The position numbers were made by a program, and so were the translations under genes. The notes under the pieces are model-generated. The model saw only the letters and a list, made by a program, of their open reading frames with translations, was not told the DNA's origin and searched no databases. From an uncultured Gemmataceae bacterium (GTDB lineage Bacteria; Planctomycetota; Planctomycetia; Gemmatales; Gemmataceae): 64,000 bases of DNA. The number at the start of each line of letters is the position of its first letter. The first letter of the stretch is position 1. The stretch lies in contig CAVVPN010000001.1 of assembly GCA_963750165.1 (NCBI GenBank), positions 192,001 to 256,000 of the forward strand, read 5' to 3'. Shown here in pieces: positions 34,699 through 61,499 of the stretch.

Positions 34699-35493
34699 TC
34701 ATCGCGTTTCCTCCTCCCGGAAGGTGAGCGAGGGAGACACCAGACCAGTCGCAGTCCGGCCGTGCGGCTCGCGGCACTCCTCCGCTCGTGTTTCCCCCTC
34801 CCGACTCGAACTCGTTGTCTCCTCGGCCGCGTCGAACGGCTTCACGATACGGCGCTGGTAACGGAGCACCGTCGGCGGCAGCGACTCCTCCCCCGCCCGC
34901 CGCCGTGCGTCGTTTAGCAGGCGGAGGACGTTCAGCATCTGCTGGCGAACGCGCGCATAGGGCTCGAACGGTACGGTGTAAAGCTCGCGGCTCAGAGTTT
35001 CCGCCGGCCTGCGGACCGCCCTTTCCAAAAAATACGCCTTCAAGTCCCGGTACGCCTCCTGGCCGATCTGGACCCGTGAGTGCCACTTGTCGTCCGGCTC
35101 CGGCGGGTCGTCCGTCCCTGCCCTGGGCTTGAAATCCCCTTGTTTGTACGTGATGGAGTAACCTGAAAAGTGAAGCGGCAGCCTGCGGATGTCGCGGACC
35201 CGCTCCCCTTCCTCCTCGAAAAAACGGTGTTTGCCGTGGGTGGCGAGGAGGACGAAGAGACGCCCGTGGCGAAGGTAATGCAGGTTGGCGAGGCCGGCAA
35301 GTTTCCGCCGCGCCCGCGTCTGGCGCGAGATGGCGATGCCGTACTTTTCCTGGAGCTTCCCGTCCACGGCCCGCGGATCCTTGCCCGTGGGCACCCAGCC
35401 GCTGACGTAGAACCAGTAGCCGTGGGGCAGGTAGCAACAGGCCAGTTGCTGGACGAACCCCTCGACCGTCGTTGCTTCGCAGCGGTAGTGCAT
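34699..35493 (-). CDS. Conserved basic hypothetical protein (candidate DNA-binding/replication protein)
   Basis: MHYRCEA...HGYWFYVSG...RRKLAGLANLHY...PFEPYARVRQQ; Arg/Tyr-rich. Confidence 0.6.
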   Translation of the reverse strand: MHYRCEATTVEGFVQQLACCYLPHGYWFYVSGWVPTGKDPRAVDGKLQEKYGIAISRQTRARRKLAGLANLHYLRHGRLFVLLATHGKHRFFEEEGERVRDIRRLPLHFSGYSITYKQGDFKPRAGTDDPPEPDDKWHSRVQIGQEAYRDLKAYFLERAVRRPAETLSRELYTVPFEPYARVRQQMLNVLRLLNDARRRAGEESLPPTVLRYQRRIVKPFDAAEETTSSSREGETRAEECREPHGRTATGLVSPSLTFREEETR

Positions 35494-35760
35494 ACGGTGA
35501 AAAGACCATTCCTTCCCCGGCGTGGCGGAAGGCGGGGTTGTTTGTTGACGGCCAACCCCACGCCGATGAAAACCGTTTTCCCCGAAAGGCGCAAGGGTCG
35601 GTCCGGGCGTCGTACCCTTCCCAAACACGCAAGCTCCGACCCAGGAAAAACCTCCCTGCCACCTTGAAAACCTCTCCCTCGAAACGGTTCTCGGCGGGCC
35701 GCCACTATATTCCAAGTGCGACCGCGCCGAATTTATACGCGTACCGTCTGCGAACCTCAT

Positions 35761-35802
35761 GGCGGACGGCGGCGTGTCCCAGGGACACGCCGCCTGTCCG
35801 CC
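35761..35802. repeat. Near-perfect 42-bp palindrome
   Basis: GGCGGACGGCGGCGTGTCCC-A-GGGACACGCCGCC(T)GTCCGCC. Confidence 0.9.
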
Positions 35803-37038
35803 GCCAATTTGCCGCCACAGGAGGCCTTTTCTCCCGAAAAAGTCTCCTGTGACCGCTTCGCCTCCCGCCAAGGAATGCGGCGCGAGGCCCCGTACCAAGG
35901 GAGCCTCGCGCCCGATCTTCCGAACGCTCAAAAAGCCAGTCAGCCCTTTCGTCGTGGCAAATGTGTCCGGCACCACCCGTTGACACGCCAGCGGGTCGCG
36001 ACTGCCTTGCCGCACGCACCGCCCGGTTCCACCCCTGGCTCCCGCCAAAGGCATCCCCGGCTGTCTACTCAGGCCCCACTCCCAGACTCCAGCATTTCAA
36101 GCACGTGGGGAACCAAGCCCACGCACCGGCGACCAGGCCGGCCGCTGGAGCCCTTCCCGCGTTAGCCATCTCCTTCGTCTTCTGGGTCACGTGGCTATCG
36201 GGCGTTACCCCGAGGACCTCTGGCCGTATGTCCGGGCTCCCGCCGCGGCATAGTTTCGGCAAGGCCGTTTCTTACCCGGCTTCGCCATTTCGGGGGACAG
36301 AATATAGAAGCTCCTCCCTTACCCTTCGGCCAGGGTCGTTCGCCGTCACCACGGGCCGCTGTCGGCCTGCAGATGACATTCTCGGCGTCGTCTCCCAGAA
36401 AACTCACCGGCAAGCCCTTACGGGCCTTTCATGGTTGAGCTTTTCACGTCTCCGCGTTTAACGGAGTACACGGGTCAGTCTTACCCGTTTCCTGCTGTTG
36501 CCAGGCAGGAAGCTCCCCACGCCGGCCAACGTTCCACGAACCTCGCGTAGCGAGGCCCGAGGCCCGCGGGCGGATTTGCGGCCTGCCAGGCAGGACCGCG
36601 CACCAGCTTTGCAAGATGGCGGCTTTGGCGCACGCGCCAAAGGATGTCCGCGTCGCCCACATTCAGTACGAACGCATAGGATAGAACGCTGAGATTGCTC
36701 TTCTGGGAAACAAAGCCAGGAAGGATTACTTCAGCGAGCCTCCTTCGAGCACGGACAAGCCACTCTCGCGGCAATCCGGCTCTACCGGCACAGCACGTGA
36801 CGGCTGGTTAGTGCCATCCTCTTAGCCTGGTTGGTGGCCAGGTTTACCGAGCGTGCTGCGCGAACGGAAGACCGTGGTCAAAGCGTTTACGTCATTGACG
36901 ACCGGCAGGACCTATCCTCGCCCTGCGGTGCGGACGATAGCGCAGGAGGGGCGGAAGAACCACGACGATTCAGCCGTGCCGGCCAGACCCCCCGCCGGCG
37001 CGGGCGGGCGCCCGGTCGGAATAACACCGGCGGGCCAA

Positions 37039-37085
37039 CTACCTCGCTACCTCGCTACTCCACTACCCACCACACTACCGGTAGC
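37039..37085. repeat. CTAC-core repeats with 8-bp period (centromere-like)
   Basis: CTAC at 37039, 37047, 37055, 37063 and 37075; inverted GTAG at 37081. Confidence 0.7.
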
Positions 37086-37207
37086 GCGGCAGCGCACCGG
37101 ACCCGCCACGCCGTGTCGGATCCCCCTTGCGGTCGTCGTGCGGATCGTCTTACCCTGCCCCCAGGGTACAGGATGAACCCCGATCACCCGACGAACCGAG
37201 GCGCCCC

Positions 37208-38047
37208 ATGACCGACTATCTCGCCCACTTCGGCCTCAGCAAGGCCCCGTTCTCGACGACGCCGGACCCAGCCTTCGCCTTCGCGACCCGCGAGCACCGG
37301 CAGGCACTGGCCAAGATCGCCTACTACACCGAGGAGCGGCGCGGGATGTTCCTCTTGTTGGGTGAAGTGGGCACGGGGAAAACCACCATTTCGCAGTTGA
37401 CCAGCAACCGCTGGCGCTCCGAGCCGGGTCGGTTCGTCGCCGCGCACGTGACCGACCCCTCGCCGCGGACGCCGGCTGCCTTCCTGCGTCTCGTGCTGGC
37501 CTCCTTCGGCTTGCCGACCATGCGCAACCTCCTCGACCTCAAGGCGGCCTTCCGGCGGTTCCTCGTCGAACAGTACCGGGCCGGCCGCACCGTCGTGTTG
37601 CTCATCGACGAGGCCCAGACCATCCAGTCGGTCAACCTCGACACGCTCCAGGCGATGGCGAACGAGCAGACGCAGACCGCCAAGCTCCTTCAGGTCGTCC
37701 TGCTCGCCCAGCCGAACTTCGAGTACAAGCTCACGCAGAAACCCGCGCTCCGCTCGCGCATCGCCGGCGGCACCACGCTCAATTCCCTCACGCCGGACGA
37801 GGGAGTGGACCTCCTGCGCCACCGGATGGGCGTGGCGGGCGGCGACTTCGACCGCATCTTCCCACTGCCGACCCACAAGACGCTGTACAACGCGACGAAC
37901 GGTGTACCGCGGGACCTGTGCGTACTCTGCGACGCCGCCCTGTTTAATGCCCTGGCCCTGAACCGCTCTGCCGTCGATCCCGAATGTCTCGACCTGGCCC
38001 TCACGGACCTGTCGTTCAAGGGCTGGCAAAGGCAGCAGGCCGCCTAA
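37208..38047 (+). CDS. ExeA-family AAA ATPase (stand-alone)
   Basis: Y..HFGL...PFS.TPDP, GEVGTGKT, LIDEAQ and GVPR motifs. Confidence 0.9.
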   Translation: MTDYLAHFGLSKAPFSTTPDPAFAFATREHRQALAKIAYYTEERRGMFLLLGEVGTGKTTISQLTSNRWRSEPGRFVAAHVTDPSPRTPAAFLRLVLASFGLPTMRNLLDLKAAFRRFLVEQYRAGRTVVLLIDEAQTIQSVNLDTLQAMANEQTQTAKLLQVVLLAQPNFEYKLTQKPALRSRIAGGTTLNSLTPDEGVDLLRHRMGVAGGDFDRIFPLPTHKTLYNATNGVPRDLCVLCDAALFNALALNRSAVDPECLDLALTDLSFKGWQRQQAA

Positions 38048-38068
38048 ATCCCATTTCCGCCGGACACC

Positions 38069-38617
38069 ATGACCCGCAAGACCGCAAGCCTCGCCTACCC
38101 CGCCGACCCCCTCGCCGCGATCCGCGAGCTCCAGGAACTGGACGCGCGGCCGGCCGATGGCCAGGGCGGAGCCGGTGGCCGGGCCTCGGAACCCGGTCCC
38201 ACGCCGGCCCCGCGCCCTCTGCCCCCGCCCGAAGCCGCCGCGCCACCGCCAATGTCAGCTACCAGTAGCGCGGTAGCGAACGCTGGCGGTAGCGATGGAA
38301 GTAGCGCTACCAGCAGCGCAGAAGGTGGCGTTCTCCGTCCACGGCCCGGAAGGCCTGCCGGCCGACCGCGTGTCGAATCGGCAAGACATGAAACGGGCGG
38401 GAATCGGGACCCGATCGCGGAGGCGGTGCGGGAGATGCTCTCCGGGCCGTACGTGTCCGACCCAAGGAAGGGACCGTTCACGGTCTCCACGGTGAAGATC
38501 CCCACCGAGGTCTGGGACCGGCTCGGCTGGCTGTCGGCGTGGGCGGGGCGACCCAAGCAAGAGATCATCGCCGACGCGCTGAGGGAACATTTCGTGAAAA
38601 TCCTCAAGGACAGGTGA
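38069..38617 (+). CDS. Protein with a disordered N-terminus and C-terminal RHH-like domain (ParG-like)
   Basis: STVKIPTEVWDRL...GRPKQEIIADALREHF strand-helix-helix pattern. Confidence 0.65.
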   Translation: MTRKTASLAYPADPLAAIRELQELDARPADGQGGAGGRASEPGPTPAPRPLPPPEAAAPPPMSATSSAVANAGGSDGSSATSSAEGGVLRPRPGRPAGRPRVESARHETGGNRDPIAEAVREMLSGPYVSDPRKGPFTVSTVKIPTEVWDRLGWLSAWAGRPKQEIIADALREHFVKILKDR

Positions 38618-38624
38618 GGGGGCC

Positions 38625-39746
38625 GTGTCACGGGCACTAATACCGAACAGCACGCAGGTTCCGGACGTCATCCTCGACCGCTGGATGGCCGAGTTGTCCG
38701 GGGCGGAGTTCAAGGTGCTCTTGTACATCGCCCGCCGCACCTACGGCTTCGGGAAAGACGCGGACGACATCAGCCTCAACCAACTGGCCCGCGGCATCCG
38801 CCGCCGGGACGGCAGCTGGCTCGACCGAGGAACCGGGCTGTCCCGGTCCGGGGTGAAGTCGGCGTGCAGCTCGCTCATCACGAAAGGGCTGGTCATCCGC
38901 TCGGCGAACGTTGGCAAGGACGGCAAGGAACCCGAGGAAAGCACCTATCGGCTGAATCTGTACGCTCCTCTCCCGGAGCGGGTAGGCCAGAAAAAAGCCT
39001 ACCCGGGCCAGAAAAAAGCCCACGTAGGCCGGAACGGAACCGGAGGTAGGCCGGAAATCGCCCCAGGGGTAGGCCAAAAACTGGCCCCACAAGAAACAGA
39101 TCAAGAAACAGGCCAACACCCAGCAGCAGTGGGGGCCGAGGAGCCGGAAGGGGAGGGGTCGGAGAATGCTGCTGCGTTTCTCGTCGAGGAGCTGGTCTCG
39201 CACGGGGTCGGGCGGGCCGCCGCGGAACAACTCTCCCGTAACAAACCGGCCGTGTGTCGGCGCTGCCTGGAGTACCTGCCCTACGCGAAGGTGCGGACGA
39301 CGCCCGGGGCCTGGCTCGCCAACGCCATCCGCGCGGAGTACGGCCCGCCGGAAGGATACCTCAAACAGCAGGTGACAGGGCCGGACAGCATCTCGAACAC
39401 GGGCACGCCCAAGAAACGACGGATAAGGCCGGCAGGGGACTCCCATGCCGCGATCACCGCCCGCTTGAGGGACGCCTACGAGTTGCTTGAGAAAACGCGG
39501 CCTGACGCAATTACGGCCTTTATGGCGTACCTCGCGGCGGAGCAGAGCCGGGCCAGGCGGTTCGCCGCCAAGTTATCGCTCCGCCGGAGGGAGGAATACC
39601 TGGCGACGTTCGATTCCGAGGAGCATCGCCTGCGCGGGTTCGCCCACTGGGTCGAGTCCGAGGGCCGGGCTTTCGTCGCGCCGGAAGCGAGGGGGGACCT
39701 GGCCCCGCGTGGCCCCGGACAGGCGGCCAGTTCTCCGGCGCCTTGA
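38625..39746 (+). CDS. Replication initiator with a phage O-like N-terminal HTH
   Basis: PN.TQVP..ILD...LSGAEFKVLLYIARRTYGF.K..D.ISL.Q motif; internal iteron-like repeats. Confidence 0.8.
   Translation: MSRALIPNSTQVPDVILDRWMAELSGAEFKVLLYIARRTYGFGKDADDISLNQLARGIRRRDGSWLDRGTGLSRSGVKSACSSLITKGLVIRSANVGKDGKEPEESTYRLNLYAPLPERVGQKKAYPGQKKAHVGRNGTGGRPEIAPGVGQKLAPQETDQETGQHPAAVGAEEPEGEGSENAAAFLVEELVSHGVGRAAAEQLSRNKPAVCRRCLEYLPYAKVRTTPGAWLANAIRAEYGPPEGYLKQQVTGPDSISNTGTPKKRRIRPAGDSHAAITARLRDAYELLEKTRPDAITAFMAYLAAEQSRARRFAAKLSLRRREEYLATFDSEEHRLRGFAHWVESEGRAFVAPEARGDLAPRGPGQAASSPAP
38981..39080 (+). repeat. Five iteron-like repeats within rep (putative oriV)
   Basis: GTAGGCC(A/G)GAA-like cores with GGCC at 38985, 39006, 39027, 39049 and 39072 (spacing 21, 21, 22, 23); followed by CAAGAAACAG x2. 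Confidence 0.75.
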
Positions 39747-40060: not shown

Positions 40061-40264
40061 CGACACACCGGTGGGAAGGGGGACCGTCAAGCCTACAAAG
40101 CGTCGGCTTCCAGCACTGACTGCCGACCACCATTCGGCGGACGTGAACGTGAGACTCCCGTTGTCCGTTATCGGTTTGCGCCACCCTGCAGGACTCCGGG
40201 TCAGGGCTCAAGGCTTTCCTCCGGGCCGAAAATGGTGCAGAACCAGTGGGTGACCGGAGGAGGA

Positions 40265-43200
40265 TGACAAGTCTTCAGCACACGCAATCACCCCAGGGCG
40301 ACCGAGAACAACCGGAGCCTGCCCCTGTGGCCCCGGATTCTGGGCCGTTGCTCAGAGCTGACTTCTTGATGGAACTCGAGCGGAAAAGCTCCGGCCTTGC
40401 GACCGACCCGAGAACGCTCAAGACAGGGCACGCGGCGGACCCCCGCTTGGTGCGGGCGGACGGCACCCCCAACGTGCCGGAGGCCGGGGAGGTCATGGAG
40501 CGGGAGACACCGGTTTTCTCGTCGTTCGCGACCAGAGCACGAACGCCGCCTTCGTCGCACCAACCCTTGCTGCCGTTCCCCGACCCAGACGACGCGCCGG
40601 AGTCTCCCCACAACGATCCCTCTGACACCGAAGAAACCCAAAATGCAGTACAAGACGATGGTCCTCGAACTCCTGCAGCAGCACTCGGAGATTCACGAGC
40701 AGCTCCGCAGCCAACGGATGTTGCTGCCGACGCTGGAACTCCTGGCGAGGCAGCTGAAGAACAGTCACGAAGCCTGGAAAGGTCGCCTTTCTCTGGCGAA
40801 GCCGGGCAGCGACCGGAGCCAGACCGAGAGCGAGGCCTTGGAGATCGCCCTAAAGGAACTGGAGGACTGTTTGACCTCACGATCTCCTTCGGGCGAAGAC
40901 GGTCCGCTGTCACTAGACGCAGCAATGGCGTTCATCCGCGGCCACCTTCCGCCCGCGTAAAGGCGTCACGAGATCAGCCGACGCTGTTTGACTCGCTTAC
41001 CGAGGAACAGTCTCCGGGACCGGAGGAAACAGCGCCGCCCGTGGTCCCGGCAATGCCCGCGGCTGCCGAAGCCCTTGACCCTCCTGGTCTGTATGCCTCC
41101 GGTGACGAACAGCCACCGCCCACCACATCCTTCACCATCGCCGGCGGCGAAAAAGCCAAGGCCCGCGACATCCTCGCCGCCATCCGCGCCGTCAAGACCA
41201 TCGACCGCGAGCGGCGGCCCGCCAGGCCGGAGGAGCGGCAGGCGCTCGCAAGCTTTGCGGGCTTCGGCCCCGTCGCCCTCTCCATCTTTCCCGACCCCGG
41301 CACCGGCCGCTACAAGGACGCCACCTGGCAGGCATTCGGGGAGGAGCTGAAGACGCTGCTTTCGCCCGAGGAATACGTCAGCGCCCGCCGCACCACCTTC
41401 AACGCCTTTTACACGTCCCCGACTGTCATCGCGGCCATGCACGAGGCCATCGATCGCCTGGGAATTCCTGGGAACGCCACGCTCCTTGAACCGGGCTGCG
41501 GCGCGGGCCATTTCATGAGCCAGGGCCGGCGCGGGCTGCGCTACATCGGCGTCGAGTTGGACCGCGTCTCCGGGCGCATCGCCCAGCTGCTCCACCCCGA
41601 CCAGGACATCCGCATCGAGAACTTTCGCGACACACGCCTGCCCGAGGGAATGATCGACGCCGTGATCGGCAACCCTCCCTTCGCCGACGTACGGCTCGAC
41701 TTCCACGGCCTGCGTCTTGCCTTGCACGACTTCTTCCTCGCCAAGGGGATGGACGCGCTGAAACACGGCGGCGTCGTCGCCCTGGTCACCAGCCATTTCA
41801 CGCTCGACAAGCAGAACGCCAGTCTGCGCGAGCACCTGGCCGAGCGGGCGGATTTCCTGGGGGCCATTCGCCTGCCGTCCGACGCCTTCAAGCGGCAGGG
41901 CACAAGCGTCGTCACGGACCTCGTGTTCTTTCGCAAGCGGGCCCCCGGCGAACCGGCCAACCACGCGGACCCGGCCTGGCTCGAGACCGAACCCATCGAC
42001 ATCGACGGCGTCGCCATCCCGATCAACCGCTACTTCCGGAATTGTCCCGAGATGGTGCTGGGCAGCTTCAGCCGCAAGGACCGCCTTTACGACGACGGCT
42101 ACAGCCTCGCCTCGAACGGCGACCTGGCGGAGCAACTCCGCGAAGCGATCCGCAATCTGCCCGAGGGCGTGGCTTCCGCCGTGCCCTCCCCTGAGCAGGT
42201 GCTCGCCCCGTCGAACACTGTCCCGCCATCGCTGCCGCATGTCACGGAAGGCAGCTTCTTCGTCGGCGACGATCGCACCATCCGCCAGTCCCTGGACGGG
42301 CGGTCGGTGCCGGTCACGTACGGAGGGAAAACCCTGCACGCTGGCGGCACGCTCAGCGCCAAGCGCCTGGCCGCCCTAGTCGGCTTACGCGATCGCGCCC
42401 GCCGCGTTTTGCAATCCCAGAACGAAGGTTGGCCCGAAGCGGACCGCAACGACGCACGCCGGGAACTGAACTGGACCTATGACCGATTCACCCTCGCCTA
42501 CGGCCCGATCAACAAGACCACCTTTGGGGAGACTGCCGACGGGAGCCTGATTCGTCGCATGCCCAACCTGGTGAAGTTCCGCGAGGACCCGGACGCGATG
42601 CTGGTCCTGTCCCTGGAAGACTACGACGAGGTCACGGGGCAGGCCACGAAAGCCGCCATCATGACCAGAGACGTGGTCGGCAGGAACCCGCCCATCACGT
42701 CGGTCCGGAGTGCCGAGGAAGGGTTGCTCGTCTCGCTCGACCAGCGCGGCGCGGTCGATCTGCCGTTCATCGTCACGCTCTACGGCCAGCCCGAGGAGAA
42801 GGTTGTTGCCGAACTGGGCGACCTGATCTTCCACGACCCGAAGTCCCGGACCTGGCAGACGGCCGACGCCTATCTCTCGGGCAACGTGCGGGCTAAGCTC
42901 GCCGCCGCCGAGCAGGCCGGCCCTGCATACGCGCGCAACGCCGAGGCCCTGCGGGCCGTACAGCCCGAGGACTTGCTGCCTGGCGACATCGACGCCAACC
43001 TGGGGGCGCCGTGGGTCCCCGAGAGCGACATTCAGGCGTTCGCAGCCGATCTCTTCCGTGTCACGCCGCCTTCGATCCAGGTCGGGCACTTGCAGAAGGA
43101 CGCGGTCTGGAGCCTCGACGCCGACTACGCCGCCCGGCAGTCCGTCGCCGCGACTTCCGAGTACGGCACGCCCCGCGCCAACGGCACCGGCCTCCTCGAA

Positions 43201-46124
43201 ATGGCCCTGAACATGAAGACGCCGACGATCTACGACACCGTCACCCGCGGCGACCGCGAGGAGCGCGTGCTCAACCGGGAGGCCACACTGGCCGCCCGAG
43301 AGAAGCAAAAGCAAATCAAGGAGCGCTTTCGCGCCTGGCTGTTCGCCGACCCCGAGCGCACGGAGCGCCTCGTGCGGCTATACAACGACGCCTTCAACGC
43401 GTTACGCCCACGGCTGTTCGACGGCGCGCACCTCGACTTCCCCGCCATGAACCAGACCATCCAACTCAGGCCCCACCAGAAGGACGCCGTCTGGCGCGGC
43501 ATGAGTTCCGGCAACATGCTGCTCGCCCACGCCGTCGGCGCCGGCAAGACCTTCACAATGGCCGCCACCAGCATGAAGATGAAGCAGGCCGGCCTAATCG
43601 CCAAGCCGATGTACGTCGTGCCCAACCACCTGTTGGAGCAGTTTGCCCGCGAGTTTATGCAGCTCTATCCGAACGCCCGGCTGCTCGTCGCCACCAAGGA
43701 GGACCTGACGCGCCAGCGCCGCAAGCACCTGACCGCCAAGATCGCCAGCGGCGAGTGGGACGGCATCATCATCACGCACAGTTCGTTCGAGCGAATCGGC
43801 ATGTCCCGCGCTTACCAGGAGAAATTCCTGGGCGAGCAGATCGAGGAATACAACCAGTTGCTCACCTGCGGCGCCAGCAGAGATGCGACCAGGAACCACC
43901 GCAACCTCATCAAGACCATCGAGAAGCAGAAGGCGGCGCGTGAGGAGAAGCTGAAAGACCTGCTGGCCGAGGACAAGAAAGACGACGGACTGGTCTTTGA
44001 CGAGCTGGGCGCCGATTACCTGTTCATCGACGAGGCCCAGTATTACAAGAACCTGGAGACGCCAACCAAGATGGAGCGCGTCGCGGGTATCCAGACCGGC
44101 GGCAGCGAACGCGCCTTCGACCTGTACATGAAGGCCCGCTACCTGCATCAGCAACACCCCGGCCATGGCGTCACGTTTGCCACCGGCACGCCCATCAGCA
44201 ACACCATGTGTGAGATGTACACGCTGCAGCGCTTCCTCGACCCCGAGGGGCTCAAGAGCCGTGGGATCGAGCATTTTGACGGCTGGGCGGCCACGTTCGG
44301 CGAGGTCGTGGACACCATGGAAATCTCCCCGGACGGCAAGACCCTGAAGCCACGCAGCCGCTTCGCCAGGTTCGTGAACCTGCCGGAGCTGCAGATGATG
44401 TTCCGCGCCTTCGCCGACGTGCAGACGGCCGAGATGCTCGACCTGCCAAGGCCCCGGCTGGAAACCGGCAAGGCCCTCGTCGTTGCCTGCCCGATGTCGG
44501 AGGAGCAGGGCGCCCTCCAGCAGGAGCTGGTGGCCCGCTACGAACGGCTGCGGACGCAGAAGGTGGACCCGCGGGAAGATAACGCCCTGGCCATCACGAC
44601 CGACGGCCGCAAGCTCGCCCTCGACGCCCGGATGCTTGCCGGCGATGCGCCGGATTTCCCCGGCTCGAAGGTCAACGCGCTGGTCGAGAACGTCACGGCC
44701 GTGTGGGAGCGAACCGCGGCGACACGCGCGACACAGATGGTCTTCTGCGATATGGGCGTCCACCCGACGCCCTGGGGCTACTCGGCCTACGAGGAGATCC
44801 TCCGTAAACTGACCGCCCGAGGCATCCCCCGGCGCAGGTCGCCGCCATCGGCGACGCCGACAGCGACGCCAAGAAACGAGCCCTCTTCGACAAGGTCCGC
44901 AGCGGCCAGGTCCGGGTGCTGCTGGGCAGCACGCAGAAGATGGGCACCGGCACCAACGTCCAGAAACGCCTGGCGGCGCTGCACCACCTCGACGCCCCCT
45001 GGAAGCCGGCCGAGGTCGAACAGCGCGAGGGCCGCATCCTCCGCCAGGGCAACGACAACGAGGAAGTGGCGGTCTATCGTTACGTAACTACCGGTTCCTT
45101 TGACAGTTACATGTGGCAGGCGCTCGAAACCAAGGCCCGGTTTATCGCGCAGCTCATGGCCGGCGACAACGCCGTCCGCCGTGCCGAGGATGTCGGCGGC
45201 CAGGAACTCTCCTACGCGGAGGTGAAAGCGATCGCCTCGGGCAACCCGGCGGTACTGACCCTCGCCGAGGCCGACGCCGAGTTGCAGCGACTGTCGATCC
45301 TCAAGAGGAATCACGCCGACGAGCAGTACCTCGCCCGCCGCAGCGTGCGCGATCTGCCCGCGACCATCGGCGTGCTGTCGGAACGTCTGGCTGGCCTCAT
45401 GGCCGACCTGGTCACTGCCACGGCTCATGCCGCCGACCCCATCATCATCGGCAGGCGTCCTTGCTCCCGCGAGGACGCGACGGCCGTCCTCGGCGAGTGC
45501 CTGGAGTCGATCCCGGAGTGGGTCCACGAGACGCGGCGCATCTCCCTGGGCGTGTATCGCGGCCTGCGCTTCGGCCTCGTGCTTCATCCGCAATTTCCCC
45601 CCGACGTGTATCTCGAGGGGGCAACAACGCGCCAGTCCATGCTCTCACGGGAACACCACGGACCGCGGGCCATTCTGAATGCTGCGGAGCGCCTGGCCAA
45701 TGCCTACGGCTCTGAATGCGCCCGCGTTCGGCAAGACCTGGCCATCGCGGAAGCCCAACTGCGCGACTACCAGGCGCGCCTCGGCACGCCCTTTCTCCAC
45801 GAGTCCTACCTGTCCCAGCTGACGGCCCTACGTGACCAGCTCAAGACCGGCCTTTCCGGTGCGCCTCCGGAACCTGGTGCCGAAGCGGTACCAAGGATTT
45901 CCGAACTCGCCGAGCAGATCAATGCGCTTAAGGCGGCGCACACCATCGAGACGACGACCCAACGCGTCGGCAAACACCGTTCCTCCGCGGAGGAGCCCGT
46001 CACTGCGCGAATCCGCCGCCGATCGGAAGCGCTTCCCTCCCCTGATCCAGCGACGGAGTTCGACGACGACGCATCGAGAGTAGAGGCATCTCTCGTCCTT
46101 CGCCTTGCCCGCGACGGCCCATGA
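40265..46124 (+). CDS. DarB-like N6-adenine methyltransferase-SNF2 helicase, frameshift at ~44830; true start uncertain (possibly after 40960)
   Basis: AFYT, LEPGCGAG and IGNPPF (MTase); HAVGAGKT, IDEAQ, ATGTPISN, GTNVQ and QREGR (SF2 helicase). Confidence 0.9.
40643..40960 (+). CDS. Helical hypothetical protein overlapping the helicase ORF in another frame
   Basis: MQYKTMVLELLQQ...ESEALEIAL; more protein-like than the Pro/Arg-rich helicase-frame translation here. Confidence 0.65.
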   Translation: MQYKTMVLELLQQHSEIHEQLRSQRMLLPTLELLARQLKNSHEAWKGRLSLAKPGSDRSQTESEALEIALKELEDCLTSRSPSGEDGPLSLDAAMAFIRGHLPPA

Positions 46125-49833: not shown

Positions 49834-51165
49834 TTAACCGAACACGCCCTCAAGTGCTGCCCGCTGCACCGACGGGAACAAGTGCCGGTAGCGCTTCCGC
49901 TGCTCCTCTGTCGAGTGACCGACCCACTCGTCAATGAGTCGCTGGTCAATACCCTTGCTCGCACAGGCCGAGATGAACGAGTGACGCATCGCGTGGAGGC
50001 CCCGGATCTTGTCCCATTTCGTTCCGGCCAGGACGCGCTTGAAGTGGTCGTGGCACTCGTCTCGCGTCACCGCCGTGGTCGCCACACCACCGCGGCCCTT
50101 GACCGTCGCGAGCCGACCTTTAAGCGACGAGGGCCGCACATCTTCGTTCTGGTGACCTGTCGTCCGGCTCCGCTTCTTGCTTCGCATCACCTCGCCGTGC
50201 TGGCAGAACATGGCTCCGCCGCCGGGATGACCGGCCAGGTAGTCCTTTAGCACGGTCGCCAGAGCCGAAGTGAGCGGGACACGCCGCGTGGTCCGCTGCC
50301 CCCTGGTCCGCTTCTTCTCTCGGATCATGATCGTGTCGCCGGCGAAATCGACGTCGGTCACCTGGACCCGGAGGATCTCTGACCGCCGAGCGCCCGTATG
50401 GACGGCAAAGCAAAAGAGCGGATGTACCCAAGGATGGGTGGCCCGCTCTTTGACGAGCGCAAGCAGCTCCTGCAACTCGGCCGGTTGGAGGTAGAGCGCA
50501 TCCCACAGCTCGGCGATTTTTTTATCTGTGAGGCCGCCGGCCGCGATTCGCCTTACGATCTCCGCATAAGTCTGAAACGGTGGCTTCTCCTCGCCCTTGG
50601 GGTAGCGAAGTCCCTTGGAGGGAAACGCCCCCTTGGTGATCTTCATCGGCCCGCCCCAATTCCACGCGGCCCGGAATGTGGCGATCTCCTTCCGGAGTGT
50701 CACTGGCGAGAGACCGGCCGCCGCACGCTTATCGACGTGGCCCTGAAGGTCCGCGAGCGTGAGACGATCGAGAGGGTACTTGTCGCCCAGGCTTCGGCAG
50801 AAATGGTTCAGGTGCATCCTGGACGTGTCGAGCGAGTTCGCCTCGACCGTGCCGTTCGAGTGGGTGGTGATGTAACGGTCGCGAAGATTGCTGAGCGTAT
50901 TGGTCCGCACGATGGGCAGCGGAACGGCCGGGGTCTCGCCCTCGCCCCGAAGAGCCGCCAGCCGCTGCCGGACGAACGCCACGATGTCCGCGTCTTCGGG
51001 AACGTGGACCTCGCCGCGCTTCACCCGGTCCAGGATGCCGGTGACAATACCGGCGGTTTCTTCCGCATCTTCTTGGTTAACGTCACCGAGCGGGAAATTG
51101 CGTCGTTTCCCGTGCCAGTAGAACTGGCAATAGAAGTGATCTTCCTTCGTCCAAACCGACGCCAT
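49834..51165 (-). CDS. Tyrosine recombinase/integrase
   Basis: HTGARRSE, HAMRHSF and VGH...RY catalytic motifs; GAAAGGGG RBS. Confidence 0.93.
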   Translation of the reverse strand: MASVWTKEDHFYCQFYWHGKRRNFPLGDVNQEDAEETAGIVTGILDRVKRGEVHVPEDADIVAFVRQRLAALRGEGETPAVPLPIVRTNTLSNLRDRYITTHSNGTVEANSLDTSRMHLNHFCRSLGDKYPLDRLTLADLQGHVDKRAAAGLSPVTLRKEIATFRAAWNWGGPMKITKGAFPSKGLRYPKGEEKPPFQTYAEIVRRIAAGGLTDKKIAELWDALYLQPAELQELLALVKERATHPWVHPLFCFAVHTGARRSEILRVQVTDVDFAGDTIMIREKKRTRGQRTTRRVPLTSALATVLKDYLAGHPGGGAMFCQHGEVMRSKKRSRTTGHQNEDVRPSSLKGRLATVKGRGGVATTAVTRDECHDHFKRVLAGTKWDKIRGLHAMRHSFISACASKGIDQRLIDEWVGHSTEEQRKRYRHLFPSVQRAALEGVFG

Positions 51166-52054
51166 GACTTGCCCCCTTTCTGGGTGGGGCAACACGACTG
51201 CTATACGACTCCCGCAATCGCCAACCTTTAGCCAACCGCTATTATAGCGGGAGCAAGAAGAAGATGTTTCTGATTAGTCATAAATTGTGGTGGGGGTTGA
51301 GATAGCGTCTGCTTATTTGCTTGCGATTTTCGGTTGGCTGTCGCAAGCCCCTCAACCTGGCTTGAGTGCCAGGTTGCCACATCGTATTGACGTTGATGTG
51401 ATGCTGCAACTTGTTAAAGATCAGATGTTTACAGACGATTTCGCCATCGCCTGTATTATACTGGCGTAGTGGTCGCATTGCCAGTGTTTTTACCAAATTT
51501 TTACCATTTCTCTTTGCCGCTGGCGAAGCAGGTTTTGCTACTGATCGCCGTCCGCTGTGCCGTCGATCCGGTGGTTACAGGTTTGAGTTCCGTCATTATC
51601 AATTAACATAAATATTTACATATCAATGACTTTTGTTTTTTCAATTTAGGAATTGCACTGCATCCCAAGCTTTGGGGATAATTGGCGGGTGGCGTTGAGA
51701 CCGTATTGGGGCCGGTGTCTGGACTGGACAATATTCTTTCTGGGCATTTGAACATTCTGGCAGCCCGGTCAGCCTCGCTTAGGGATATTTGAGGATAAAA
51801 AGTCACCTCTTGGCTACCGACTCCGCGCCGTCCCACCATTCTTCGATGCCACTTGCTCGGCCGGCTTCTCCGCGAAGAAATCTGTCTTCTTCGGTCGCTT
51901 TTTCGGCGTGCCGACCGCGTTGCGCCGGAAGCCCCCTCTCTTGCGGTCGGCTTCCGTCTCGTCCAAGCATCCATGTGACTTTCGCCTTCTACCCACTCGA
52001 CCGAGACGAGAAAATTGCGCCCATATGACACAATTTCCTGCCAAAATTAGAATT

Positions 52055-52120: not shown

Positions 52121-52206
52121 CTTTGTGGTTGAAAATGCGCATTCCGGCGCAAAACATTCACCTTTTCGGAGCCACTCAACCACTCTCGGTCTTTTCGGGA
52201 GGTTCT

Positions 52207-53292
52207 ATGGGCGAGGAGCGGCCGTTCCGGGTCTTGAGCCTCGACGGAGGGGGGATGCGCGGCACCTACACCGCCACTTACCTTGACCGATTAGCCTCTG
52301 ATTTCGCAAAACGCCGTGGGGTCAAGGCGATCGACCTGGGCGCCGCGTTCGACCTCATTGTCGGGACCAGCACAGGCGGAATCATCGCCTGCGCACTTGC
52401 CGCCGGCGTCCCCCTTCCCGACGTCGTGCATTTTTACCGCAAGCACGGACCGTCCATCTTTCGACTAAAGCTCCCTACCGGCCTTTTTGGGGTCATTTGG
52501 CAAAGGTGGAGGCGCCCAAAAGCGCTTGCTGCAGGTGCAACGGCAATGCGAGAGGCATTGAAGGAATGTCTTGGTGACGTGACCGTGGGGCAGATCTACC
52601 AGAAGCGAAAGATTGCACTCGCCATCACGTCAGTCGAGATGAGCCAGCACCATAGTTGGGTGTTCAAAACGCAGCACCTCCCGACCTCCAACGGGCGTGA
52701 CAACGACTACAGTCTGGTCGATGTTTGCTTGGCGACGAGCGCGGCCCCAATTTACCGTTCGATGGCGGCCGTTGACAGGCCCGGTGGGGGCGGATTCAAC
52801 GTTTTCGTCGATGGAGGGCTGTGGGCGAACAACCCAGTCCTCGTCGGGCTCATCGACGCCCTTGAAATGACCTCACCGGGTAGGAAGATCGAAATCTATT
52901 GCATCGGCACTTGCCCGCTTCCAGCCGGGGAGCAAATCGGTCGTAACGACGTCCACCGGGGGCTCGGCGGTTGGCAATTCGGCGGCGCCGCGGCAGGCGT
53001 TTCGATTTCCGCACAGGAGTTCGCATACGACAACATGGCGCGCATGCTCTCGAAGCACCTGAACAGGCCCTGCGACATCCTGCGCTTCCCCCGCGACAAA
53101 ACGCCCGCCGCCCTGATGCCGTACCTCGGATTGGACAACACAACTGAGAAGGCGGCCGACGCCCTCGTCGGCCAAGCACAAATCGACGCCGACATGACCA
53201 ACAGCCGCCTCTGGAAGACCGAATCTCTGGAAGGGCGTCTCATCACCGAACTGTTTTCGGCGGCACCCCCGCGAGCGGACGCGCCTGCCTGA
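52207..53292 (+). CDS. capV: CBASS patatin-like phospholipase effector
   Basis: DGGGMRG, GTSTG and DGGLWANNP motifs; directly upstream of the CD-NTase. Confidence 0.92.
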   Translation: MGEERPFRVLSLDGGGMRGTYTATYLDRLASDFAKRRGVKAIDLGAAFDLIVGTSTGGIIACALAAGVPLPDVVHFYRKHGPSIFRLKLPTGLFGVIWQRWRRPKALAAGATAMREALKECLGDVTVGQIYQKRKIALAITSVEMSQHHSWVFKTQHLPTSNGRDNDYSLVDVCLATSAAPIYRSMAAVDRPGGGGFNVFVDGGLWANNPVLVGLIDALEMTSPGRKIEIYCIGTCPLPAGEQIGRNDVHRGLGGWQFGGAAAGVSISAQEFAYDNMARMLSKHLNRPCDILRFPRDKTPAALMPYLGLDNTTEKAADALVGQAQIDADMTNSRLWKTESLEGRLITELFSAAPPRADAPA

Positions 53293-53316
53293 ATATGCCA
53301 CTTTACTGAGGTTAAT

Positions 53317-54387
53317 ATGATCGATTGTTCCGGCGACGTGCTGGCCTACCACGACAATGAAATCACGCTCGGGAAGGCTGAGCAGGACAACATGAGGGAG
53401 CGGCGGAACGCAAACCGGACCCGCCTGAAAAAAGGGCTGGAGAAGGCGAAAAAGCCCGCCCCTGTACTCTTCAAGAGCCAGGGGTCTTACGCGATGAAGA
53501 CCATGACGCAGCACGACGACAACAAGTACGACATCGACGACGGCGTGTACTTTCTCAAGGAGGATCTCGTCGGCCCTCGTGGTGCCGACATGTCTGCGTT
53601 AGAGGCGAGGCAGATGGTCCGTGATGCCGTGGACGATGGCAGCTTCAAGACGCCCCCTGAGGTCAAGAAGAACTGCGTCCGGGTCCACTACGAGGAAGGC
53701 TATCACGTCGATCTGCCGGTCTACCGCCTGGTCACCACTAAAAACAACTTCGGCCAGGAGGAGCAGCACGCAGATCTGGCAAGTTCCGAATGGAAGCGAT
53801 CCGACGCTCGGGACGTCACCGCCTGGTTCAGTAGCGAGAACAAGCGTCAGAGCCCAGACACCACTAACGGGCGCCAACTCCGGCGAGTGACTCGCGAGAT
53901 CAAAAAGTATGCACGAAGTCGGCCGAGTTGGGAGCCGCAGATCCTGAGCGGCTTTGGCATCACCAAACTTGTGACTGAGTGCTACAGGAAGGATACCGAC
54001 CGCGAGGATAGGGCACTTTACGAAACCATGAAGGCTATTCGGGACCGGCTGACGTGGAACCTCGTCGTGTTGCATCCAGTCACCCGGGGAGACACGATTA
54101 CAAAAGGAGACGACGACCCCAAGGCTCGGTTCCTCCGCGACAGGCTTACCGATGCCCTGGACTGGCTTGCCCCCACCCTCAAGCACGATTGTACCCGAAA
54201 AGAGGCCCTCAAGTGCTGGGATAAGGTGTTCAGCACCACTTTCTTCAGTGACCGCTACAAGGAGGACGACGGTGACGGCGGTGGCGGGCCAAAGGGAGGC
54301 GGTTCCGGTGCCCTCTCGGCCGGCCTTTTCGGCCAGGGCAGTTCACCTCCGCCGGTGCGCAAGGAGGGTGGCGGGCGGTATGCCTGA
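53317..54387 (+). CDS. CBASS cGAS/DncV-like nucleotidyltransferase (CD-NTase)
   Basis: QGSYAMKT...DIDDG...CVRVHY...HVDLPVY; Gly-rich tail ending GGGRYA. Confidence 0.92.
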   Translation: MIDCSGDVLAYHDNEITLGKAEQDNMRERRNANRTRLKKGLEKAKKPAPVLFKSQGSYAMKTMTQHDDNKYDIDDGVYFLKEDLVGPRGADMSALEARQMVRDAVDDGSFKTPPEVKKNCVRVHYEEGYHVDLPVYRLVTTKNNFGQEEQHADLASSEWKRSDARDVTAWFSSENKRQSPDTTNGRQLRRVTREIKKYARSRPSWEPQILSGFGITKLVTECYRKDTDREDRALYETMKAIRDRLTWNLVVLHPVTRGDTITKGDDDPKARFLRDRLTDALDWLAPTLKHDCTRKEALKCWDKVFSTTFFSDRYKEDDGDGGGGPKGGGSGALSAGLFGQGSSPPPVRKEGGGRYA

Positions 54388-56188
54388 TAACGTCCAACAT
54401 TGGCGGCCGGAATCTCAACGAAGGCTGGCGGTGGCGGCGGTCGAATCTTGGCTGGCGAGTCTCCCGGTGGGAGTACTGCAGCTCGGTGCCGACGCACTAC
54501 GCCTTTTCTCGCACAATGAACCGCTTGCGGGATGGCGGCTGAACGTTGACTTCGGGGACCGGCTAAGGCGACTCGACCTGATCCTGCCCGCTGGTTTCCC
54601 ACGAGTGCCGCCGAAGGTGGTTTTGGTTGACCGCCCCCCATTTCTGACCTGGCCTCACGTTGAGGAGGATGGAGTCCTGTGCCTGCTGCCCGACAGCGCC
54701 GAGGTGGACTTTACGCGCCCGGGTGACTTGGCCGCCCACGTGATGTCACTGGCTTGTGAACTCGTCCAGGATTTGGTAGCTGGCCGAAGGGTTGACGACT
54801 TTCGGGCTGAGTTCAACTCCTACTGGGAAAGAAAGGTAACGTCCGGCGCGCCGAGAATACGAAGCATCATCAAGCCGGCTCCCCCGAGCCGATTCGTCGC
54901 AGTCTGGCGGGGGCGACTGTATCATCTTCTCGGAGAGACGGAGGGGGAAATCGTTGGTTGGCTTGGCCGCAGGTTCCAGTCAGGCGCTGCGGAACCGGGA
55001 ACCGAGCCCGGCATTCTCCTGTGGCTTGACAAGGCACTCCTGCCCAACGAATACCCTCACAACGCTGCTGACGTTCGCCGGATTGCCAAGGCGTGCGGCG
55101 GCGCAGAGTTGCTTGAAAAACTGGTCGGTGAAGGTGCCGAACGGGTCATTGTCGTGATGGTCGCGCCTTCGCGCAACGGCCCGTGTCTGGCCGGGGTCAC
55201 CATCAACCCGCCAGCCCCGCACGTCCGCCATGCCATGCCGCTAGTGCGAGGATTTCGCCCGGGCAAAGTGCCTCGGCAATTGCTGTTAGCCCGTTACCTG
55301 GGAGGGACGCAGGTGCTCCGATCCACTGTCGAACGCGCGGACGCCCCATGGGTTCACGGCCGTGGCGAGGATCCCAGGTTTGCCAAACTGCACACGGCCA
55401 TCGTCGCCGTGCTCGGGTGCGGTTCCGTCGGTGCTCCCGTCGCAGCCCAATTGGCCGCCGCCGGAGTCGGCCGTCTACTCCTGATCGACCCTGAAAAGCT
55501 GAAGTGGGCCAACGTCGGGCGTCATCCTTTGGGGGCCCCGGAGGTCGGCAAGTGCAAGTCTAGCGCCTTGGCAGACCGGATTGGTGCCAACTACCCCCAC
55601 GCCCTTGCCATAGAAAGCCTGCCATGCCGGTGGCAAGACGCGGGACCGGAAGGGTTGGCTTTGTTGGCCAAGGCCGACCTGGTCATCAGTACAATGGGCG
55701 ATTGGGCTTCCGAGGGTGCCCTTAACGAGTGGCATCTCGCCAACCGAAAAGGCATTATCATGTACGGATGGACGGAGGCCCATGCTTGTGCAGGGCACGC
55801 CCTGGCTATCCGACCGGACTGGGGTTGTCTCCAATGCGGATTTTCGCACGACGGGTTGCCTTTTCTGCGCGTCACCGACTGGCCGCTAGGCGCTACGGTG
55901 CGTCAAGAACCCGCTTGCGGGGCGGTATATCAGCCGTACGGGCCTGTCGAACTCGGCCACGTGGTTTCAGTGATCGCCGAACTCGCTCTTGATTGTCTGC
56001 TTGGCAACGTGACGAAGGCCACGCACCGCATCTGGGCGGCGCGGCGATCCCTACTAGAAAAGGCGGGCGGGGTGTGGACGCCTGAGTGGGCTTCCATTAC
56101 AGTCGGCCGGAGTGAAGGAGGCTTCGTGGAGGAAAGGGAGTGGCCTCGGTCCCACTCCTGTGTCGAATGCGCTGCGGGGGCCGCGTGA
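54380..56188 (+). CDS. cap2: CBASS Cap2 E2-E1 (ThiF) fusion
   Basis: E2 motif WPHVEEDGVLCL; E1 motifs GCGSVG, N..RH and EPACG; CLQC/CVEC zinc sites. Confidence 0.92.
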   Translation: MPDNVQHWRPESQRRLAVAAVESWLASLPVGVLQLGADALRLFSHNEPLAGWRLNVDFGDRLRRLDLILPAGFPRVPPKVVLVDRPPFLTWPHVEEDGVLCLLPDSAEVDFTRPGDLAAHVMSLACELVQDLVAGRRVDDFRAEFNSYWERKVTSGAPRIRSIIKPAPPSRFVAVWRGRLYHLLGETEGEIVGWLGRRFQSGAAEPGTEPGILLWLDKALLPNEYPHNAADVRRIAKACGGAELLEKLVGEGAERVIVVMVAPSRNGPCLAGVTINPPAPHVRHAMPLVRGFRPGKVPRQLLLARYLGGTQVLRSTVERADAPWVHGRGEDPRFAKLHTAIVAVLGCGSVGAPVAAQLAAAGVGRLLLIDPEKLKWANVGRHPLGAPEVGKCKSSALADRIGANYPHALAIESLPCRWQDAGPEGLALLAKADLVISTMGDWASEGALNEWHLANRKGIIMYGWTEAHACAGHALAIRPDWGCLQCGFSHDGLPFLRVTDWPLGATVRQEPACGAVYQPYGPVELGHVVSVIAELALDCLLGNVTKATHRIWAARRSLLEKAGGVWTPEWASITVGRSEGGFVEEREWPRSHSCVECAAGAA

Positions 56189-56691: not shown

Positions 56692-58110
56692 TTACCTCCC
56701 TCGTCCCTCAACCGCCTTGGCCGCGTTGCTCGCCGTGCGCAGCGCGTATTTCTCCCCCTCTTCCTGCGCCTTGCTGCTTTCCTGCATCAGGCGGGCCGCG
56801 GTCTCCTCGACGCTCCAGCCCCAGTCAATCGCCAGCAGGCAAAAGGTGAAATCCGCCTTGCTTCGATCCGGCCGCCCGTCCTTCCAGGCCTTCGGGTGTT
56901 CCAGGCATTGCCGATAGCTCGGCCAGCCGCGAGTATCGAGCCGCCTGGGGCGGTGAATCTCTTTCGCAGTGAATTTCTCCTGTGGCGCGACCAGGCCGAG
57001 GGCTTCCAGTTCGGCCTGCGTCACCCCCCTGCCAGGACTGATGCAAACCGTCTCGACGCGCGGGAACGCGGGCGCGTACTTCTGCTTGAAATTAATGCTG
57101 CCGCTGACGCGCACGGCGCCCGATGCGGTCAGGTCAGCCCCTGCCCCTTTCCGCAGCCGCCGGGCGAAATCGGCGCCTCCGTCGGCCACGGCCACCCATG
57201 CCTGGTAGTTGCCGGGACTGGTGCGCAGCACCAGGAACGACACCGGTCGCAACCGCTCTGCCCCGTTCTCGCCGAGGTCGTCGAGTTGGATCAGCGTGGC
57301 GCCGGCGGAACGCGGGCGGACGATGACGTTGTGCTGCCGCTCGGCGGCCTCCTGGAGGATGGCGGGCATGGCGGATCGCAGCTGGTCGAGCGGGCGGTTT
57401 CCTCGGAAGCCGACCTTCGCGCCGGCGGCATCGGTGAAGGTGAGGTCAAACCGCCCGGCGCCGACGCTGGCGAAGGCGTCGAGCATCTCCCGCGCTGGCG
57501 CCCCGGCCCGTGTTTCTTCCCCCACTGACCGCGGCATTTGTTCTTTACTGATTTCGGCCGCCTGATCCTCCGCGGAACTGCCGGAGCGCCCACCGCCGTC
57601 AGCGCCCTGGGGACTCGTATCGCTGTCTGCCAGGCTCCACCAATCGAGGGTAGGCGACATTCCATGGTTTTCGCGGTATTCCTGGAGGATGAGTAGGAAC
57701 TGCTCATGCAGCGCGTCGCGGCTGTCTCCGCGTGCAGTGGGGTCATATCCGGAAGATTTGTCGAGCTGGTACACCCACGGTTTTCCCGGCTCATGCGGCC
57801 GCCATGTCCAGCCGAGTTCCTTGAACGGGTCGGTCAACTCCCTGCCCGGGTTCGGGTCAACGCCCTCCGGCGCCGTGAACACCACCTGCACCTGGGCGAA
57901 GCGGCGGTCGCGGCGGAAGTGGGCATAGCGGCCGTTGCCGATGTCGATGATGTCTTCGCTGGCGACCTGCGGCAAGCGCCTGGTCCAACGGCGACGGTGA
58001 GATTGTTGCTGGCCTTCGGTCTGGGCTGCCTCCTCCGCCTCGCGGACATCGGGTAGCGTTAGGTCGGCGCCTCGCTCCTCCCCGGTATTCTCAAGCGACG
58101 TGTCAGTCAC
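56692..58110 (-). CDS. RepB-type (RSF1010-like) DNA primase domain protein with extra N-terminal domain
   Basis: IQLDDL, LRTSPGNYQAW, GAD..ASGA.R..GS.N.K and DRS.ADF motifs. Confidence 0.8.
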   Translation of the reverse strand: MTDTSLENTGEERGADLTLPDVREAEEAAQTEGQQQSHRRRWTRRLPQVASEDIIDIGNGRYAHFRRDRRFAQVQVVFTAPEGVDPNPGRELTDPFKELGWTWRPHEPGKPWVYQLDKSSGYDPTARGDSRDALHEQFLLILQEYRENHGMSPTLDWWSLADSDTSPQGADGGGRSGSSAEDQAAEISKEQMPRSVGEETRAGAPAREMLDAFASVGAGRFDLTFTDAAGAKVGFRGNRPLDQLRSAMPAILQEAAERQHNVIVRPRSAGATLIQLDDLGENGAERLRPVSFLVLRTSPGNYQAWVAVADGGADFARRLRKGAGADLTASGAVRVSGSINFKQKYAPAFPRVETVCISPGRGVTQAELEALGLVAPQEKFTAKEIHRPRRLDTRGWPSYRQCLEHPKAWKDGRPDRSKADFTFCLLAIDWGWSVEETAARLMQESSKAQEEGEKYALRTASNAAKAVEGRGR

Positions 58111-58295
58111 CGGCCGACATGATGCCTGGCGTCAGTGGGAATTTCGTCGCAGAATTTCGGTCTGCCTTGTGCCATGCTGGCCCCATTTGCCTGAAGCGAA
58201 ACGGCTCAGCTATAGTCCTGGGAGGGGGCGTTGTCAAAGCGTCTGTCCGACGCGGAGACGGATTACTGCGCCCGAAATGGCAGAGCCATGCTGCC

Positions 58296-61280: not shown

Positions 61281-61499
61281 GTGCGACCTTACTAAGAAAA
61301 TCCTTGGCGAACCAAGAAATATGCATCGGCCGATGCGTAGGCAATCTGGCGTAAGCGTTTTGGGTCGTTTAAGTGGGACGCCAACTCCAGCAGCGTGGTT
61401 CGCGCCGTTGCACTACGTTTGAGCCGAGTCAATCATCAATTTTGTCTGATTCGGGCAACTGCGATCTTTTGCGTGTTTCAATTGTTGACGAAAAAGGTG

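Follow-up and report, generated by a model that had tools for sequence, protein, structure and literature searches.

A candidate partition module with an AAA+ ATPase in the ParA position of a planctomycete integrative element

Can an ExeA-like AAA+ ATPase fill the motor slot of a DNA partition system? The question is raised by a window of 64 kb (64,000 nucleotides, G000:C1:192001-256000 in our coordinates, within a genome of 9.6 Mb) from an uncultured Gemmataceae bacterium. For this stretch, an initial annotation made from the sequence alone had proposed a tight three-gene unit composed of an ExeA-like ATPase, a ribbon-helix-helix (RHH)-like protein and an O-like Rep, accompanied by short repeats. 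Type Ib and type II partition (par) loci have the layout centromere-NTPase-RHH beside rep, with ParA, ParM or TubZ as motors. The list of open reading frames (ORFs) and a Pfam scan confirmed three co-oriented genes encoding the ATPase, the RHH protein (the adaptor hereafter) and Rep (Table 1). The cassette that they form sits in the backbone of an integrative element, and we consider it probable that it is a type-Ib-like partition module in which the AAA+ ATPase takes the position of ParA.

The assignment of the ATPase to the motor slot, already made in the initial annotation, is supported by sister elements that hold ParA and a partner at the same position. In one exchange, locus L132 carries a ParA (AAA_31, E 1e-33), a 186-aa partner and one further ORF where locus L108 carries the array, the ATPase and the RHH gene. 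The two loci are 78% and 81% identical upstream and 85% identical over 3265 nt downstream, with homology restarting, in each of them, two bases ahead of the rep start codon. The other exchange involves a paralogous element on contig C3 of the same genome, 91-94% identical to the window up to ~36926 and 86% from 40643, whose slot contains RepA (PF10134), ParA (AAA_31), a 141-aa partner and then cargo. A search of 181 genomes with the window Rep gave nine match rows, of which three were AAA+ loci and the other six corresponded to five loci without the AAA+ pair; ParA lies beside rep in four of these five, and the remaining one ends at a contig edge. A tblastn search with the C3 ParA as single query detected no ParA on contig C1, nor in the AAA+ loci. 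Since the ATPase, the adaptor and the arrays stand exactly where the sister elements carry a ParA partition cassette, a function in DNA segregation is likely. One locus, L134, has the order helix-turn-helix (HTH)-ParA, a relative of the cassette RHH family (hhalign E 1e-5, probability 83; phmmer E 5e-10) and a Rep-like gene. Its adaptor gene (L134:6880-7542, minus strand) contains dense tandem repeats of another unit, suggesting that a centromere within the adaptor gene may be general.

The ATPase and the adaptor are strictly linked. Separate searches of 252 genomes of the family retrieved eight ATPase loci and eight RHH loci in the same seven genomes, adjacent in all eight cases and followed by an O-like Rep. 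Among 14 metagenomic RHH loci, the ATPase was present in 10/10 of those with upstream DNA. Downstream of these 14 we found an O-like Rep in eight, an HTH/DnaA_N protein in L093 and, in L096, L097 and L099, a family-less ORF (529 aa long in L099) that resembles Rep only by eye, with two loci ending too soon; a Rep-like gene is always located 3' of the cassette wherever the sequence reaches that far. The initial annotation had made its proposal depend on the co-conservation of the pair, which this neighbourhood survey bore out, together with its position before a rep gene; the coupling to an O-like Rep that it had also proposed holds for most loci but not for L093 and L096/97/99. As a negative control, we used 80 ordinary ExeA loci, obtained by a profile scan of genome contigs with the ATPase alignment, and none of them (0/80) had an RHH or Rep gene. 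Integrases are close by in four cassette loci. Also as initially annotated, secretion (including type II secretion) and transposase families were absent from the adjacent ORFs scanned; neither the window nor any of the 15 loci listed has a transposase beside the cassette, and the closest insertion sequence-like ORFs are more than 6 kb away.

The nature of the motor is what separates the cassette from known partition systems. Its Pfam match is AAA_22, with no match to AAA_31 or CbiA, which places it outside the deviant-Walker-A ParA/MinD class; being AAA+ by both Pfam and fold, it is not a type II (ParM) or type III (TubZ) motor either. The Walker A motif is classical, the arginine-finger and sensor-II positions are invariant, and the catalytic positions are invariant in 60 homologs. 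The predicted model (predicted local distance difference test score 92) has an initiator-clade fold that, by Foldseek alone, matches ORC/Cdc6, TnsC and MuB and not ParA, with TM-scores against TnsC/MuB structures of 0.72/0.77 (7plh) and 0.63/0.70 (8xvb). The closest sequence family is that of the ExeA/GspA and PEP-CTERM ATPases (30-37% identity), and homologs bear ExeA-type names in their sources ('general secretion pathway protein A'). Nevertheless, the protein scores 157.6 bits with TIGR03015, below the 324.5-bit cut-off of this curated ExeA/PEP-CTERM model, and its neighbours are RHH, Rep, integrase and relaxase genes. In a quick, midpoint-rooted tree of 72 rows, in which TnsC and MuB were not included, 40 members of its clade separated from 32 ordinary ExeA with support 100, on a long branch of their own. 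Four basic residues between Walker A and Walker B (R94, R106, K112, R116) are 97-100% conserved in the clade and not in ordinary ExeA. TnsC is reported to touch the DNA backbone via K103 and T121 (10.1101/2021.05.25.445634), and the clade residues may, by analogy, be equivalent to these contacts. The closest named homologs are labelled Gemmataceae, and others Acidimicrobiales, Armatimonadota and Acidobacteriota. The same genome also encodes an ordinary ExeA paralog (L003, G000:C12:335852-336556), 31% identical. A StnY fold match led nowhere.

The adaptor begins with a conserved helical peptide (aa 1-25), from which a variable low-complexity linker leads to a conserved C-terminal domain, predicted to be RHH. 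The adaptor family comprises 37 matches, and 98 matches at 50% clustering. Residue R19 of the N-terminal peptide is invariant in the 37 close homologs (alignment A1) and not in the wider alignment. The RHH-like character noted initially is recovered in the predicted model, whose residues 135-182 match RHH domains (VIA Z 7.0, root-mean-square deviation 1.1 Å, 48 aligned), including, at lower Z, omega, ParG and pCXC100 ParB. The Foldseek E-values are all >1 because the RHH domain is short, and the middle region is modelled with low confidence. Type Ib systems likewise have a small adaptor with a flexible N-terminus and a C-terminal RHH domain, encoded 3' of the ATPase gene, and an array of short repeats, direct and inverted, in front of the operon. 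Because the defining motor is different, however, we do not count the cassette as a type Ib member, despite its presumed type-Ib-like workings.

The repeats form two arrays, both recognized in the initial annotation. Upstream, CTAC boxes start at 37039, 37047, 37055 and 37063, with an 8-nt period, and at 37075, with an inverted copy at 37081; [GA]CTAC on either strand occurs six times in 190 nt versus 1.0 in dinucleotide shuffles (p 0.003). Inside the adaptor gene, the same motif also occurs six times, versus 0.2 expected from synonymous-codon resampling with the protein fixed (p 0.002). Both clusters (six copies in 55 nt) rank among the six densest windows of the whole genome, the remaining four being, by eye, short-period coding repeats. 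Across loci the arrays share the consensus (G/T)CGCTAC and a common inverted 6-nt spacing; boxes are mostly 8 nt apart upstream (11 cases) and mostly 12, 24 or 8 nt apart in the gene. The upstream array is significant in the window and in L087, L088, L095, L097, L108 and L111, that is, 7/13 loci with upstream sequence, and the intragenic one in 14/17 locus rows, among which L089 duplicates L088. As an amendment to the initial annotation, the intragenic array, not the upstream one, is the better conserved. Five boxes of the same motif are also found at G000:C11:701820-701880, just upstream of a tRNA-Ser gene and beside integrase-like DNA; this cluster is possibly an unlinked site, or due to chance.

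The protein sequence of the adaptor linker is largely the translated DNA array. We compared linker 3-mer similarity with that of the predicted beta strand, taking the N-terminus and the tree of the rest of the core as control variables, after dereplication at 80% (n=66) and 65% (n=40) core identity. The partial correlation between strand and linker was 0.39 (n=66) and 0.55 (n=40), with a permutation p of 0.002, and the N-terminus did not track the linker (r 0.01 and -0.13). Of 14 windows slid along the core, the one on the strand reached 0.335 and the two that overlap it 0.20 and 0.16, with all others <=0.13. Within the strand, residues 139/141/143 gave values of 0.42-0.49 versus 0.17-0.30 for 138/140/142. 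In Arc and CopG, alternate strand residues face the DNA major groove; by analogy, adaptor residues 139, 141 and 143 would do so. The co-variation points, indirectly, to the predicted RHH strand as the element reading the repeats.

The general plan of the cassette resembles that of TP228 ParF-ParG-parH/OF and pSM19035 delta-omega, in which an ATPase gene is followed by one for a small protein with a flexible N-terminus and a C-terminal RHH domain. In TP228, parH and OF are likewise two clusters of direct and inverted tetramer boxes with 4-bp spacers (PMC3130281, PMC5016525), and type Ib adaptors are reported to activate their ATPase via the flexible N-terminus (PMC5016525). Unlike in type Ib, the cassette motor is AAA+ and not a deviant-Walker-A ParA, the adaptor gene itself houses the better-conserved array, and AT-rich spacers are lacking. 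TnsC, from Tn7 and CRISPR-associated transposons (CAST), and MuB are, like the cassette ATPase, stand-alone initiator-clade AAA+ modules. Both form ATP-dependent filaments on non-specific DNA that are disassembled by a DNA-anchored partner (PMC3894238, PMC7350765, 10.1101/2021.05.25.445634), and the disassembly of TnsC filaments has been likened by its authors to plasmid partition (10.1101/2021.05.25.445634). In contrast with them, the cassette has no transposase nearby, its partner is an RHH protein, and filaments are only proposed for its ATPase. In repABC cassettes, too, ATPase, adaptor and initiator follow in this order, and both sites and origin are internal, the former to the operon and the latter to the initiator gene, but RepA/RepB are ParA/ParB proteins whereas here an AAA+ ATPase and an RHH protein accompany an O-type Rep. 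SrpMRC of the SXT/R391 integrative and conjugative elements is also a partition locus stabilising an excised integrative element (PMC4489591), although with an actin-type motor.

From these comparisons a mechanism can be proposed. RHH dimers would load side by side on the CTAC boxes within their own gene, which would be the centromere; where present, the upstream boxes before the promoter would serve as operator and second RHH site, and the adaptor would most likely coat the arrays as ParG does on parH and OF. With ATP, the ATPase would polymerise on non-specific DNA through R94, R106, K112 and R116, and the N-terminal peptide of the adaptor would trigger ATP hydrolysis and disassembly. Rep would replicate the excised circle from its internal origin, and the circle would follow the ATPase as it retreats, in the manner of a ParA or MuB ratchet. 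We regard this specific filament-ratchet version of the partition role as an open bet, with the odds near balance. Partition systems are classified by motor into Walker-type ParA, actin and tubulin, with a motor-less type IV proposed (PMC5016525). We would give an even chance to a further proposition, that active partition has a fourth class of motor in which an RHH adaptor chases a nucleoid-bound, TnsC/MuB-like AAA+ filament, with a centromere in the adaptor's own coding sequence that co-evolves with the recognition strand, a motor and adaptor exchangeable with ParA modules, and one adaptor family serving either motor.

Alternatively, the cassette might be a replication-control module, the RHH protein acting as a CopG-like repressor of, or roadblock for, rep and the ATPase as an initiator-clade helper in origin opening or helicase loading. 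By E-value, the top fold matches of the ATPase are indeed ORC/Cdc6 initiators (ORC2/Cdc6), which also counts against a partition function; in a PDB sequence search, Cdc6/Orc1 was its sole match below E 0.01. Moreover, the three genes look co-transcribed, the internal array lies ~310-370 nt before rep, and the RHH matches include CopG and plasmid copy-control proteins. However, we deem this explanation unlikely: a Rep 56% identical to that of the window (with 85% DNA identity to L108 from the rep gene on) lies behind ParA and a partner, in a genome with no member of the AAA+ clade, the genes that follow the pair in L093 and L096/97/99 are unrelated ones, and the conserved N-terminal peptide would be needless for a plain repressor. 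The rep gene carries iterons directly 3' of the part coding for the N-terminal domain, and repeats occur at the same position in 15/15 O-like Rep rows listed, with another unit in L111 and L113. In phage lambda, the origin lies within the initiator gene O; the Rep conforms to this lambdoid arrangement of an O-type initiator with internal iterons, but the ATPase does not conform to that of a lambdoid helicase loader, whose gene comes immediately 3' of the initiator gene and is inherited together with it, since the ATPase is encoded upstream of rep and exchanged independently of it.

Slightly less credible still is a switch like StbABC of R388, in which the RHH protein alone would tether the element for stability and the ATPase would position it for conjugative transfer, not segregation. 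StbABC also combines repeats, a DNA-binding protein and an ATPase, is divergent from the relaxase operon (MOB), and its StbB is reported as required for transfer and dispensable for stability (PMC3098194); the cassette is similarly divergent from a TrwC relaxase gene in three loci (L092, L109, L110). Nevertheless, at the remaining loci whose upstream side is covered this place is taken by the backbone ORF or by different genes, StbB is ParA/MinD-like, unlike the AAA+ ATPase, and a Rep-like gene follows the cassette wherever the sequence reaches that far. Finally, the ATPase might act in integration, selecting targets or conferring immunity as TnsC and MuB do, or be an ExeA-type secretion ATPase whose linkage is accidental. 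This third alternative is highly improbable: the fold matches, the ExeA-type source names and a weak TniB match (E 0.006) speak for it, but it is countered by the lack of a transposase beside any locus listed, the low TIGR03015 score, the separate long-branch clade and the exchange with ParA.

Returning to the partition module that we prefer, several observations weigh against it. The upstream array is not significant in 6/13 loci (L092, L106, L109, L110, L112, L113), nor is the intragenic one in 3/17 rows (L096, L098, L112). No family match was obtained for the ParA partners of L132, L136 and C3. L134 lacks a clear array upstream of parA, and low-complexity repeats may account for part of the similarity of its adaptor. 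In the co-variation analysis protein linkers stood in for DNA, and kinship among the sequences makes them non-independent. At L095:2-563, upstream of the cassette, we recognized by eye (no Pfam match) a C-terminal ParA-like fragment and a 103-aa partner, so that this locus possibly carries two partition systems together. A search of 72,556 plasmid records did not recover the family (best matches 27-35% identical, distant ExeA-type); in plasmids, two divergent RHH proteins had no match and the single Rep match stood in another context (AAA then DnaB genes); the ATPase and RHH protein were not found in viral contigs. Because the plasmid and viral searches lacked the family, no free replicon is known to depend on the module. 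Its ATPase clade was likewise not found in 1,202 sampled genomes beyond the 252 of the family (400 others of its own phylum and 401 of each of two other phyla), a survey of samples and not a proof of absence. More generally, the support comes from sequence and predicted structure, with binding, ATPase stimulation and stabilisation standing as proposals. An Atlas label, 'putative stability/partitioning determinant' (score 0.92), served as a lead and not as support.

Table 1 Cassette, repeats and element features in the window (positions within the 64,000 nucleotides).
Feature	Position	Strand	Evidence
Backbone ORF, divergent from cassette	34702..36054	-	no Pfam or NCBIfam match
Upstream repeat array, CTAC boxes and one inverted box, candidate operator/centromere	37039..37084	+	significant in 7/13 loci
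Promoter candidate, sigma70-like, conserved (-35 TTGCGG, -10 TACCCT)	37127..37156	+	alignment, inferred
Imperfect palindrome 3' of -10, conserved, degenerate in window copy	37161..37182	+	clean stems in L087, L088, L095, L109, L110
ExeA-family AAA+ ATPase, stand-alone, 279 aa, predicted initiator-clade fold, proposed partition motor	37208..38047	+	AAA_22 E 3e-19
Adaptor, 182 aa, predicted C-terminal RHH (aa 135-182), proposed centromere-binding protein	38069..38617	+	no Pfam family
Intragenic array, six boxes in both orientations, best-conserved candidate centromere	38258..38310	.	significant in 14/17 locus rows
Rep with phage-O-type N-terminal domain	38625..39746	+	Phage_rep_O E 3.6e-8
Candidate replication origin inside rep, four GTAGGCC iterons then A-rich direct repeats	38980..39113	+	repeat comparison
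Backbone methylase-helicase (SNF2/ResIII) gene, two reading frames	40246..46124	+	ORF list, Pfam, paralog comparison
Tyrosine integrase of host element	49834..51195	-	PF00589 E 4e-19
Possible att core (weak), 13-bp match to tRNA-Leu anticodon arm	51349..51361	+	sequence match

The rep iterons, the ParA exchange, a conserved promoter and palindrome and the integrative-element setting came in addition to the initial annotation. A TTG and a -10-like hexamer are aligned in 13/13 upstream regions; since a strict consensus promoter scan before the ATPase gave zero sites, we call this promoter inferred. The arms of the palindrome change between loci yet, by eye, keep pairing, so a hairpin at the 5' end and an additional operator are both conceivable roles for it. 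The element backbone includes a methylase-helicase, a tyrosine integrase and a family-less ORF that is divergent from the rep/par slot in the window, C3, L087, L088, L113, L132 and L136. The methylase-helicase carries on in a second frame at 44916-45087, suggesting a frameshift. A homolog of the C3 ParA partner, orphaned between rep and the downstream genes (L108:9200-9603, L089:4190-4575, L132, L135, L136), was rejected as a part of the cassette and is treated as backbone because it occurs in ParA versions (L132, L136) and AAA+ versions (L089, L108) alike. Homologs of the integrase adjoin tRNA-Leu genes, and no left-hand copy of the candidate 13-bp attachment (att) core was found in the window. 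The window lies within a 131-kb stretch (G000:C1:169800-300755) bounded by two 91%-identical tRNA-Leu copies with shared tails, which holds several integrases, a TrwC homolog and a second helicase and is possibly a tandem island array. The cargo of the C3 paralog (L001:9100-17300) comprises a sigma-70 factor, an IrrE/ImmA peptidase, a ThiF protein, DUF5677 and a weak TIR match. Elsewhere in the window we observed, at 52123-56188, an operon like those of cyclic oligonucleotide-based antiphage signalling systems (CBASS), with a patatin phospholipase above the NCBIfam cut-off, a CD-NTase just below it and a ThiF/E1-domain protein; at 56692-63671 (minus strand), a Primase/Rep-like ORF (no NCBIfam match), a 994-aa ATPase and a 723-aa ORF, defence-like by eye; and, at 7336-10172 (minus strand), methyltransferase and sulfoxide-synthase-like ORFs resembling, by eye, ergothioneine genes.

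Our literature search, most subscription papers being outside it, retrieved no description of an ExeA/AAA+-RHH partition module. A survey of planctomycete plasmids names, in its accessible part, only ParA/ParB type I systems and no 'ExeA', although its supplementary tables could list such genes (10.1101/2024.01.22.576637). If true, an AAA+ partition motor would add a motor class, and the analogy between MuB/TnsC target immunity and the ParA ratchet would gain a natural case that can be tested, because one and the same element exists in near-isogenic ParA and AAA+ forms. The clade annotated as 'general secretion pathway protein A' would then be reassigned, and the cassette would offer a replicon-plus-stability unit for planctomycetes.

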